Shown: piece after piece, positions 38,916 through 40,904 of the stretch
Position numbering within the stretch: the first letter of the stretch is position 1
How the letters are laid out: each line of letters begins with the position of its first letter
Source of the DNA: an uncultured Clostridia bacterium
Lineage (GTDB): Bacteria; Bacillota; Clostridia; TANB77; CAG-508
Direction of reading: 5' to 3'
Length of the DNA: 48,535 bases
Assembly (NCBI GenBank): GCA_947599995.1
Contig: CANQFW010000001.1
Coordinates: forward strand, 1-48,535
Program-made: the position numbers and the translations under genes
The notes under the pieces: model-generated
What the model saw: the letters and a program-made list of their open reading frames with translations, nothing else
What the model was told of the DNA's origin: nothing
Databases searched by the model: none

Positions 38916-39308
38916 ATGGATGAAGAATTTGAAAAATTATTACAAGAAGCCAAAAAATATGCTAATAAAAGAATATTAAGTGAGTATGCATATTGTGGAC
39001 ATGTATCCTGTGCATTGATGAGTAAAACAGGGAAAATTTATACAGGAATAAACATAAATTCAAAATGTGCATTAGGAAATTGTGCAGAACATGCTGCAAT
39101 ATTACAAATGCTTAAAGAAGGTGAAAGTGAAATAAAAAAAATACTGGTATATTCTGTAAAAGGATACATATATTCTCCGTGTGGAAAATGTAGAGAACTA
39201 ATTCGTATGATAAATAGTAAAAATTTGAATACAAAAGTTATGGTTTCTGAAAATAAGGTTTGCACTATAGGAGAATTATTGCCTGAGATGTTCAATAGAG
39301 AAGACTAA
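38916..39308 (+). CDS. small cytidine-deaminase-fold zinc deaminase (blasticidin-S deaminase-like)
   Basis: 130 aa. NCAEHAAI (C/H-A-E) and SPCGKCRELI (PCxxC) with spacing, length and C-terminal IGELLPEMF as in the short CDA/BSD subgroup. Confidence 0.7.
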   Translation: MDEEFEKLLQEAKKYANKRILSEYAYCGHVSCALMSKTGKIYTGININSKCALGNCAEHAAILQMLKEGESEIKKILVYSVKGYIYSPCGKCRELIRMINSKNLNTKVMVSENKVCTIGELLPEMFNRED

Positions 39309-39477
39309 AAAGAACTTTTTGAAATACAACCAGCTATAAGTTATTCGATAAAGCAATTGGAAGATAGATTAAATTAAGTCGTTTAAAATAAATCATAATG
39401 GAATTAAAATAACACAAGAGGGTAAAGAGATATTAGAATATGGGAATAGGTTATATGCAATATACTTTTGCATATAA
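39309..39477 (+). pseudogene. remnant of a LysR-family regulator HTH region (frameshifted, both ends missing)
   Basis: KELFEIQPAISYSIKQLEDRLN* then, in the next frame, IKSFKINHNGIKITQEGKEILEYGNRLYAIY. This matches the sQPAvS.qIk.LE..LG..LF.R..r.v.LT.aG consensus. No effector domain follows. Confidence 0.5.
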
Positions 39478-39514
39478 AGTGTTTAAAGATTTTATACACA
39501 TTAGAAGAAAAATA

Positions 39515-39523
39515 TGGTATAAT
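39515..39523 (+). promoter_or_regulatory. extended -10 promoter element (TGGTATAAT)
   Basis: TG at 39515-39516 and TATAAT at 39518-39523, ~35 nt upstream of the GNAT-kinase ATG. Confidence 0.4.
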
Positions 39524-39556
39524 TTGTAAAGATAAATTTTTTAGGAGAACGAGAAT

Positions 39557-40552
39557 ATGTTAAAAATATATAATCTAAAGGAAAAACCAAAATATATAAA
39601 TGAAGTTGCAATTCTTACACAAAAAGAATGGGGACAAAAAGATTTATCAAGGAAAGAATTTGAGACAAAAGTAAAAAATAAGATTTCGAAAATAAAGTCA
39701 AACTTTAATAATGTTAATTATTGTAAGTTAATATTATTAGAAGATGATAGATTAATTGGATTTATTTCAATTTTTCCAAAAGATGGAGAAGAAAGAACTG
39801 ATTTATCACCTTGGTATGCAACGATGTATGTAAAGGAGAAGTACAGAAGAAATGGTTATTCAAAAATACTTAATAATGCTATTTTGGCTGAAGCTAGAAA
39901 AAGAAACATTAGTAAATTATATTTAAAAACTGATTTAGAAAACTTTTATGAAAAATTTGGTGCAAAATTTTTAAAAATATTATCTACTGGAGAAAAATTA
40001 TATTGTTTTGAAATACTAACTAACAGAATATCAATTATAGGTGGTTCTGGAAGTGGAAAAAGTACTTTAGCTAATATACTATCAAAAGAACTAAATATAC
40101 CTGTTATACATTTAGATAGTATAAATTATAATGCAAATTGGACGCAAAGAGATAAGAATGAAAGAGATGTAATTATCTCTTCTAAAGCAAATGAAGAAAA
40201 ATGGATTATTGATGGCAATTATAATAAAACATTAAAAGAAAGATTAAATAGAGCTGATTTAATAATCTGGTTAGATTATTCTACATTTGCTCATATAAAA
40301 GGTGTATGTAAAAGAATTTTAAAAAATTATAATAAAGAAAAACCAGATGTTCCTGGTTGTAAAGAACGTATTAATTGTACTTTCCTAAGATATGTAGTAA
40401 CATATAACAAGAAAAAAAGACCAAAGGTTTTAGAACTTTTAAGAGATATTTCTGAAGAGAAGACTTTGATATTTAAAAGACAAAAGGATTTAAATAAATG
40501 GCTTAAAAATTATTATATACATGATAAAAATATATTAGATTATATAAAATAA
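39557..40552 (+). CDS. fusion protein: N-terminal GNAT acetyltransferase plus C-terminal adenylate-kinase-like P-loop NTPase (FlaR/topology-modulation type)
   Basis: GNAT motif A: VKEKYRRNGYSKILNNAI. The second half reads ISIIGGSGSGKSTLANILSKELNIPVIHLDSI...DGNY...RLNRADLIIWLD. Confidence 0.7.
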   Translation: MLKIYNLKEKPKYINEVAILTQKEWGQKDLSRKEFETKVKNKISKIKSNFNNVNYCKLILLEDDRLIGFISIFPKDGEERTDLSPWYATMYVKEKYRRNGYSKILNNAILAEARKRNISKLYLKTDLENFYEKFGAKFLKILSTGEKLYCFEILTNRISIIGGSGSGKSTLANILSKELNIPVIHLDSINYNANWTQRDKNERDVIISSKANEEKWIIDGNYNKTLKERLNRADLIIWLDYSTFAHIKGVCKRILKNYNKEKPDVPGCKERINCTFLRYVVTYNKKKRPKVLELLRDISEEKTLIFKRQKDLNKWLKNYYIHDKNILDYIK

Positions 40553-40571
40553 GTTGAAAGAAGGAAGAAAT

Positions 40572-40904
40572 ATGATACATAAAATGAAATTAAATGAAGA
40601 TCCATTTGAAAGAATAAAAAATGGAACAAAAACAATAGAATTTAGATTATATGATGAAAAAAGAAGACAAATAAAAATTGGAGATAAAATTGAATTTTCA
40701 AAATTACCAGAAGTACAAGAGACAATACTAGTAGATGTACTAGACTTATATAAAGAAGAAACATTTGAAAAACTATTTAGAAAACTTTATACAGATGAAC
40801 AAGAAATAAAAAGAAAAACTAATTCAATGTATCAATATTATTCTCCTGAAAAAGAGAAAGAATATGGTGTTATTGGAATAAAGGTATCGTTAATCAGCAA
40901 TTGA
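40572..40904 (+). CDS. ASCH-domain protein
   Basis: MKLNEDPFERIKNGTKTIEFRLYDEKRRQIKIGDKIEF...EYGVIGIKV fits the ASCH (PUA-like) pattern. ATG at 40572 follows GAAGGAAG; the track start is TTG at 40554. Confidence 0.7.
   Translation: MIHKMKLNEDPFERIKNGTKTIEFRLYDEKRRQIKIGDKIEFSKLPEVQETILVDVLDLYKEETFEKLFRKLYTDEQEIKRKTNSMYQYYSPEKEKEYGVIGIKVSLISN

Follow-up and report, generated by a model that had tools for sequence, protein, structure and literature searches.

Do three neighbouring genes for a zinc deaminase, a GNAT acetyltransferase fused to a kinase-like P-loop domain and an ASCH protein make up a dedicated pathway of cytosine-N4 chemistry, or are they chance neighbours on a mobile element? 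The question is raised by contig CANQFW010000001.1 (assembly GCA_947599995.1) of an uncultured Clostridia bacterium (lineage TANB77; CAG-508); the whole stretch analysed, 48,535 nt with a G+C content of ~27%, is called the window below. A first-pass annotation had taken the three genes for a coherent cassette acting on N4-acetylcytidine (ac4C) or detoxifying antibiotics; as proposed, the trio would be a new resistance or RNA-modification module. We consider it reasonably likely that the genes are mosaic cargo on a small, decaying serine-recombinase element that splits the gene spoVD, and not a dedicated pathway; ordinary cargo turnover on such an element lowers the importance of the trio. The features in question are as follows.

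38916..39308, + strand: CDA-fold (cytidine deaminase) zinc deaminase, 130 aa (Pfam dCMP_cyt_deam_1, 3.8e-10)
39557..40552, + strand: fusion protein, 331 aa, GNAT (about residues 1-150) joined to a FlaR-like P-loop domain of the nucleoside monophosphate (NMP) kinase type (residues 156-319)
40572..40904, + strand: ASCH protein, 110 aa, with the Glu-type octapeptide GTKTIEFR (Pfam ASCH, 5.3e-9)
41000..41034, + strand: intrinsic terminator of the fusion/ASCH operon, 11-bp stem followed by T8

All three genes were found on the + strand, each with significant domain matches, and a genuine terminator follows them; the folds assigned earlier (CDA-type deaminase, fusion of GNAT with an adenylate-kinase-like domain, ASCH) were borne out by Pfam and NCBIfam profile matches. 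The terminator was missed by a generic scanner because its stem is AT-rich; folding confirmed the hairpin (-14.3 kcal/mol, z = -5.2), with none of 200 shuffled sequences reaching as stable a fold. The region is found in identical form in six further metagenome contigs, and the source lineage belongs to the uncultured gut Clostridia.

Co-occurrence of the genes and origin of the deaminase

Loci with the GNAT or the fusion were surveyed in one genome per GTDB species. The survey returned 79 loci: 21 with the fusion, 3 with separate neighbouring GNAT and P-loop genes and 55 with the GNAT alone (L- and P-numbers below denote comparison loci and proteins with relatives of the window genes). The deaminase was present in none of the 18 fusion loci with enough upstream sequence and in no other related element; ASCH followed the fusion in 3 of 20 species-level loci (L021, L035 and L019). 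No context read for a deaminase homolog contained the fusion or ASCH. On the sequences compared, the trio is unique to the lineage of the window among the loci examined, and the idea of a coherent cytosine-N4 cassette has to be given up, the partners of the deaminase elsewhere being radical-SAM and viperin genes. The three genes had also been described as a single run to one terminator. Strand and terminator are as described, but a pseudogene and a promoter part the deaminase from the fusion:

39310..39456, + strand: scar of a LysR regulator pseudogene, helix-turn-helix region only (...QPAISYSIKQLEDRL...), located by blastn and tblastn
39495..39523, + strand: promoter-like site with extended -10 (TACACA-17-TG-TATAAT) for the fusion/ASCH operon

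Searches with blastn took this region apart. Window positions 38850-39310 correspond to the deaminase gene of a radical-SAM/viperin cluster (L096; 80% DNA identity), positions 39310-39446 to an internal piece of LysR (83% to L007) and positions 39461-40585 to the L007 fusion with its upstream region. The LysR scar matches L007 7053-7191 (83%) and L096 9189-9314 (77%), both within intact LysR genes, and tblastn with the L096 LysR protein gave a match at 39312-39456. A block starting at about 39484-39493, which holds the fusion promoter, is conserved 5′ of the fusion in all related elements. Minimal elements (L017, L018, L021, L103 and L012) pass from the left attachment site, attL, straight to the equivalent of window position ~39490; we therefore read 38818-39492 as the residue of a mostly deleted cluster. 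Parallel partial decay was seen in L036.

The nature of the lost cluster is indicated by relatives of the deaminase. All four of the nearest homologs with a context read (91, 87, 84 and 83% identical) are located inside nucleoside-type clusters, each followed by a CYTH or AAA_28 gene. Besides a variant radical-SAM enzyme, a kinase of the viperin-associated type and a GT2-like protein, these clusters contain either CYTH, a prokaryotic viperin and LysR or additional P-loop kinases. Around the 84% homolog (L096-99) the order is Tmk-like kinase, 165-aa protein, 390-aa radical-SAM protein, 199-aa protein, GT2-like protein, deaminase, CYTH, 261-aa radical-SAM protein and LysR. CYTH again comes directly after the 87% homolog; the 83% homolog (L112-113) is preceded by the genes for the 390-aa radical-SAM and GT2-like proteins and followed by an AAA_28 kinase gene, and an AAA_28 kinase gene also follows the 91% homolog. 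Further homologs, 70% and 64% identical, have other contexts. The 261-aa radical-SAM protein matches the PADLOC model pVip (‘viperins associated with kinases’, 1.4e-44) and scores 151 bits against NCBIfam viperin_w_prok, below the cutoff of 180; its 390-aa counterpart is above the cutoff of NCBIfam variant_rSAM (256 bits versus 125), and the cluster kinase matches VakA (7e-14). Since relatives of the deaminase sit in such clusters, and since the LysR scar and the fusion's own promoter intervene, the gene is a leftover: comparison with the related loci showed it to be an orphan of a deleted viperin/radical-SAM cluster.

Comparison of the sequences shows the following history. The fusion is the standard left-end gene of the element family, with its own promoter, joined in some lineages by ASCH in the same operon. 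The deaminase came separately, within a nucleoside-type cluster that entered between attL and the promoter of the fusion; this cluster comprised a variant radical-SAM protein, a kinase of the viperin-associated type, a GT2-like protein, the deaminase, CYTH, a prokaryotic viperin and LysR. Later deletions spared only the deaminase and the LysR scar. Read in this way, the locus illustrates well how a gene cluster decays within an intervening element, with its deletion scars mapped.

Clusters of the nucleoside type were seen at L096 3189-9997, L112 3056-8747, L007 1843-7879 and L116-L120, with variant and viperin-like radical-SAM proteins, a VakA-like kinase, GT2-like and CYTH proteins, and NUDIX or the deaminase subfamily. 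Their product or substrate may be a viperin-type nucleoside analogue. No publication describing a deaminase in viperin clusters came up in a literature search. Directly 5′ of the viperin-type cluster of L096, at 1937-2989, lies a 350-aa fusion of a QueH (epoxyqueuosine reductase) domain with a GNAT; L098 keeps the GNAT part only, beside two serine recombinases. GNATs located near deaminase homologs in L096-98, L100 and L112 were considered as members of the window GNAT family and rejected (E >= 0.002). A 169-aa P-loop protein of L112 is homologous to the window P-loop domain (31% identity, 4e-23) and is the sole such homolog among those compared.

The element within spoVD

Seven further features define the element and its flanks.

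37091..38800, + strand: spoVD 5′ fragment, class B penicillin-binding protein, ending ...GGHQGGG*, without the last transpeptidase helix and the PASTA domain
38785..38796, + strand: attL core CCAAGGAGGTGG, left copy of a 12-bp direct repeat
41182..41337, + strand: DUF6870 small protein (Pfam PF21757, 1.9e-9), just 5′ of the recombinase throughout related loci
41492..43200, + strand: large serine recombinase pseudogene in three reading frames (open reading frames 41492-41620, 41583-42353 and 42307-43200; Resolvase, Recombinase and Zn_ribbon_recom domains)
43221..43688, - strand: Cu/Zn superoxide dismutase cargo gene (Pfam Sod_Cu, 4.7e-24)
43748..43759, + strand: attR core CCAAGGAGGTGG, right copy of the 12-bp direct repeat
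43749..44042, + strand: spoVD 3′ fragment (QGGGVAAPVGGQIFSEVLPYLE... and PASTA domain; QGGGVAAPVGG...), reading frame checked

The element extends over ~38.8-43.76 kb (~4.96 kb), with the gene order deaminase, LysR scar, fusion, ASCH, DUF6870, large serine recombinase and Cu/Zn superoxide dismutase (minus strand) between the repeats. The spoVD 5′ fragment covers positions 1-535 of the 636 of NCBIfam TIGR02214 spoVD_pbp (7.7e-156), and in Pfam it matches PBP_dimer and Transpeptidase positions 3-288 of 299. Homology of the spoVD 5′ ends of all related elements with the window ceases at ~38817. Loss of the spoVD 3′ end was also considered and proved wrong: tblastn with PASTA fragments of related loci located the 3′ end at 43749-44042, the fragment from L007 matching at 43785-44033 (48% identity, E 6.5e-21). 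Recombination inside the 12-bp core would yield ...GGHQGGGVAAPVGG..., a junction identical to that of L013 and L103, and the predicted attB junction is GGACACCAAGGAGGTGGTGTTGCA. Once joined, the frame encodes HQGGGVAAP, just as L013 and L103 do, so that excision would restore spoVD.

Small serine-recombinase elements split spoVD between the codons for HQGGG and VAAP in many metagenome-assembled genomes of uncultured gut Clostridia (L007-L026, L035, L036, L041, L042, L056 and L103-L105). Published work on a spoVD-intervening element was not found in a literature search. The recombinase of L103 is intact (653-aa open reading frame, reading through attR into the PASTA fragment); it is frameshifted in the window, L007-16, L024, L026 and L056. 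The window frameshifts recur in all six independent metagenome contigs, and L001 has a third one. Because the window recombinase is broken into three frames, with the catalytic-serine segment (YIRLSQED) in another frame than the remainder, the window copy of the element is probably immobile as judged from its reading frames. The same observation makes delivery of the genes by a developmentally excised element, as suggested earlier, doubtful for this copy. The DUF6870 small protein is a candidate recombination directionality factor.

The fusion is constant across spoVD elements whose other cargo differs: a viperin-type cluster and LysR in L007-11, LemA and TPM phosphatase in L012-16, superoxide dismutase in L017, and a cargo including ASCH, flavodiiron protein and rubredoxin in L103-105. 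Comparison of these sequences shows it to be the hallmark left-end gene of the spoVD element family. Outside any element it was found in L027, L029, L030, L033, L034 and L037.

Oxygen-detoxification cargo recurs in these presumed anaerobes, as Cu/Zn superoxide dismutase (window, L017, L018, L020, L024 and L041) or flavodiiron protein with rubredoxin (L103 6655-7969). In the organism of the window, spoVD lies upstream of mraZ, and aspS comes after ftsL (region 44232-48520); in L012 and L103 it follows ftsL within the cell-division cluster. Just 5′ of the window spoVD lies the gene of a 614-aa protein (35174-37018) that matches DnaB_C only weakly and in part and whose N-terminal region is of low complexity; a DnaB-like gene lies downstream of the element in L036.

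Likely substrates and competing explanations

Each of the three enzymes would probably act on nucleoside- or nucleotide-type small molecules. The links to cytidine chemistry drawn earlier are reasonable at family level for the deaminase and ASCH; that of the GNAT, drawn through TmcA, lacks sequence or fold support.

The deaminase carries the zinc and catalytic motifs of cdd proteins, C56-A-E58-H and P88-C-G-K-C92. Its best solved relative is the cytidine deaminase of Bacillus subtilis (1JTK, 1.4e-14), and chains of blasticidin-S deaminase follow at 8.6e-6 to 1.1e-4. Scores are below every NCBIfam cytidine-deaminase cutoff (73.3 bits versus 74 for PRK05578, 65.4 versus 113.65 for TIGR01354). 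The whole subfamily has a one-residue deletion aligned to B. subtilis Glu44, H, Q or Y for Arg56 (His in the window protein, as aligned with B. subtilis Cdd) and CGH in the Phe24 region. In 1JTK, Glu44 contacts the ribose 3′-OH. A cytidine-like nucleoside with a 3′ position unlike that of ribose, e.g. a viperin-type product, would fit the Glu44 deletion. This subfamily, tied to viperin-type clusters, may process viperin-like nucleoside analogues.

In the fusion, Pfam Acetyltransf_1 matches residues 50-135 (7.8e-12) and the acetyl-CoA-binding segment R97-x-x-G100-Y-S102 is conserved, as in the GNAT superfamily. The GNAT half resembles 9Y12, a Bacteroides fragilis protein of unknown function, both by sequence (4.7e-11) and by fold (TM-score 0.76); the nearest structures in the fold search are small-molecule N-acetyltransferases (9Y12, ArsN/phosphinothricin acetyltransferase, SpeG, AAC(6')-Ii and MccE), and TmcA/NAT10 were not among the top matches. 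Residues 156-319 align with positions 2-167 of 172 of the adenylate-kinase-like NCBIfam family PRK08118, ‘DNA topology modulation protein’, at 4.1e-48; the score of 163.7 bits does not reach the equivalog cutoff of 215. The Walker A sequence GGSGSGKST is invariant among 18 homologs. Confidence in the AlphaFold model is moderate (mean pLDDT 71.5) and lower for the P-loop half; Foldseek gave nothing on the kinase domain, and a sequence search of the PDB with the P-loop domain gave only Walker-A-level matches. An exhaustive search placed the fusion in a narrow clade, one cluster at 50% identity, while the stand-alone P-loop family has 2402 representatives at E<=1e-10. Distant fusions exist of GNAT with P-loop (P0399 and P0412) and of NUDIX with P-loop (P0459).

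In element-free species, a NUDIX gene lies <130 bp from the GNAT in at least 12 loci (L040, L046-L049, L051, L053, L055, L062, L075, L078 and L092, with the GNAT near position 10001 in most); about 28 of the 79 loci have one within 2.5 kb. Genes for Maf, Ham1/RdgB and Sua5/YrdC neighbour the fusion or the GNAT in several loci outside elements. The NUDIX adjacency, the NUDIX/P-loop fusion and the Maf, Ham1 and Sua5 neighbours suggest nucleotide-linked substrates. The fusion would N-acetylate and phosphorylate a nucleotide-linked metabolite in a network shared with NUDIX hydrolases, and GNAT, FlaR-like kinase and NUDIX appear, by their gene neighbourhoods and fusions, as a mutually linked and widely conserved set in uncultured gut Clostridia. 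A literature search found no biochemical characterisation of a substrate of the FlaR/PRK08118 family; the association offers a starting point toward the substrate of this large ‘topology modulation protein’ kinase family. An Rfam scan of 36900-44400 at E<=1 gave no match, hence no riboswitch hinting at a ligand, and PHROGs matches for the window proteins carry generic acetyltransferase, kinase and ‘RNA-binding protein’ labels only.

The ASCH protein matches the structures of PH0355 (3e-11) and PF0455 (4e-10) and is 27% identical to Escherichia coli YqfB. Its likelier start is ATG 40572, with a GAAGGAAG ribosome-binding site, 19 nt past the fusion stop; TTG 40554 is an alternative. The octapeptide G-x-K-x-x-E-x-R is retained, including Lys and Glu, and the protein would be an amidohydrolase of the N4-acyl-cytidine type. 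ASCH comes after the fusion in L021, L035 (a deletion-fused copy), L103-105 and L019 (an internally deleted copy); on these gene orders it is an optional operon companion of the fusion. Contexts of ASCH homologs vary: after the fusion, with NUDIX and pyrophosphatase, or alone. In L106-L108 (6001-7564) an 80%-identical ASCH gene stands in a row with genes for NUDIX and a pyrophosphatase (with a glyoxalase-like C-terminal part) on a mobilisable element with relaxase and tyrosine integrase.

The explanation closest to the first-pass annotation is a module that makes and erases, or salvages, ac4C: ASCH would deacetylate ac4C as the free nucleoside or within tRNA, the P-loop domain would phosphorylate the cytidine thus set free or use ATP to activate the GNAT, and the deaminase would lead to uridine. 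According to a 2026 preprint, Glu-type ASCH proteins hydrolyse ac4C and deacetylate tRNA, with Lys and Glu of the octapeptide essential, and both residues are present in the window protein; the gap of 19 nt between fusion and ASCH, the recurrence of the pair in L021, L035 and L103-105, and the nucleotide-oriented GNAT neighbourhoods (NUDIX, Maf and Ham1) fit as well. A TmcA/NAT10 logic, however, found no support: the Pfam scan gave Acetyltransf_1/7/10 and generic P-loop families only, with no GNAT_acetyltr_2, Helicase_RecD, DUF1726 or tRNA_bind_2, the P-loop domain is NMP-kinase-like, and the fold search returned generic small-molecule GNATs. Moreover, 17 of 20 fusion loci are without ASCH and all evaluable ones without the deaminase, ASCH homologs also occur alone or with NUDIX and pyrophosphatase, and it is hard to see why one operon should encode both a writer and an eraser. 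We regard such a module as unlikely.

We would put no more weight on the fusion alone being the beneficial cargo, as a bifunctional enzyme modifying xenobiotics or antibiotics, with ASCH and the deaminase as unrelated passengers. It is the single constant cargo gene, its structural neighbours include ArsN/phosphinothricin acetyltransferase, SpeG, AAC(6')-Ii and MccE, and independent fusions of GNAT and P-loop exist. Off elements, however, many species keep the GNAT in stable linkage with NUDIX and other genes of nucleotide house-cleaning, which looks more like core metabolism than resistance, and no curated resistance family is matched at its cutoff. Similarly low is the probability we assign to fusion, ASCH and NUDIX forming an undescribed pathway that writes, erases or cleans an N-acylated cytidine-type nucleotide (ac4C-like or a viperin-type analogue); such a pathway would be spread among gut Clostridia by spoVD elements, and the window deaminase would act on the same modified cytidines.

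Could the three open reading frames be functionless relics of a dying element, merely undisrupted so far? The recombinase is frameshifted twice in the window and a third time in L001, the LysR scar and large deletions lie beside the deaminase, ASCH has lost an internal part in L019 and is fused by a deletion in L035, and in L103 the fusion gene is found split. Yet all three window frames are full length with the motifs CAE/PCGxC, Walker A and GxKxxExR intact, the promoter, ribosome-binding sites and terminator of fusion and ASCH are intact, and the fusion is 70-90% conserved across many species; we find this explanation quite improbable. Least probable of all is a cassette for resistance to cytosine-type peptidyl-nucleosides (blasticidin S, amicetin and gougerotin) by deamination, acetylation or phosphorylation, and amide hydrolysis: although the deaminase shares its fold family with blasticidin-S deaminase, the GNAT-kinase layout recalls AAC(6')-APH(2''), NCBIfam gives a weak match to AAC(6')-Ia (4e-6) and a 70%-identical deaminase homolog adjoins an rRNA adenine dimethylase-family gene in an island flanked by insertion sequences, the deaminase matches tetrameric cytidine deaminases (1e-14) far better than it does blasticidin-S deaminases (~1e-5), the radical-SAM/viperin genes conserved beside it look biosynthetic, the trio does not recur among the loci compared, resistance-family scores are far under their cutoffs (26.7 bits versus 265), and deaminase, fusion and ASCH of the window have no PADLOC match.

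Some points also weigh against mosaic cargo. The pairing of fusion and ASCH is confined to one element family and may therefore reflect shared ancestry, not function. A viperin-type cluster or its remnant adjoins the fusion in three lineages (window, L007-11 and L036), and in L112 a FlaR-like P-loop gene and an unrelated GNAT gene come after the deaminase; the nucleoside cluster and GNAT/kinase genes may thus be linked in function to some extent. The deaminase frame is intact and read-through from spoVD is possible, so the gene may be kept by selection. The contexts viewed spanned ±10 kb around each homolog and were read for a sample drawn from the 213 deaminase and 1027 ASCH homologs.

Comparison with known systems

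Homotetrameric Cdd (1JTK) and blasticidin-S deaminase share with the window deaminase a length of ~130 aa, the CAE and PCGxC motifs and a C-terminal ELLPxxF. In contrast to Cdd, the window protein lacks the Asn-x-Glu ribose motif, and its nearest relatives are located in radical-SAM/viperin clusters, not in nucleoside-salvage operons. A pVip-like radical-SAM protein and a VakA-like kinase, as in prokaryotic viperin (pVip) systems, are also present in the native neighbourhood of the deaminase; its clusters differ from those systems by an extra ‘variant’ radical-SAM gene and by GT2-like, CYTH and NUDIX or deaminase genes. With the N4-acylcytidine amidohydrolases of the ASCH fold (YqfB, TthASCH and PH0355/PF0455), the window ASCH protein shares fold and octapeptide; it is of the Glu type, whereas YqfB is of the Thr type.

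Like TmcA/NAT10, the fusion joins an acetyltransferase and an NTP-binding P-loop domain in one polypeptide. The P-loop domain is NMP-kinase/FlaR-like in the fusion and a RecD-like helicase in TmcA/NAT10, which have ~670 aa or more against 331 aa; the fusion has no tRNA-binding domain. With the FlaR-type PRK08118 family it shares a full-length P-loop match, the domain being joined to a GNAT in the window. The bifunctional enzyme AAC(6')-Ie/APH(2'')-Ia likewise has an N-terminal GNAT and a C-terminal kinase, but its APH is protein-kinase-like, unlike the NMP-kinase-like P-loop domain of the fusion, and the AAC(6') similarity is weak.

The element as a whole is comparable to skin (in sigK), SPbeta (spsM), gin (gerE) and yin (yabG): a large serine recombinase element within a mother-cell sporulation gene, with short direct repeats and an excision that would restore the frame. 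The window element differs from these in its target, spoVD, in being very small and not prophage-like, and in having a pseudogene for its recombinase. The cargo of the window is accessory genes on a sporulation-gene intervening element, which is an already known kind of thing.

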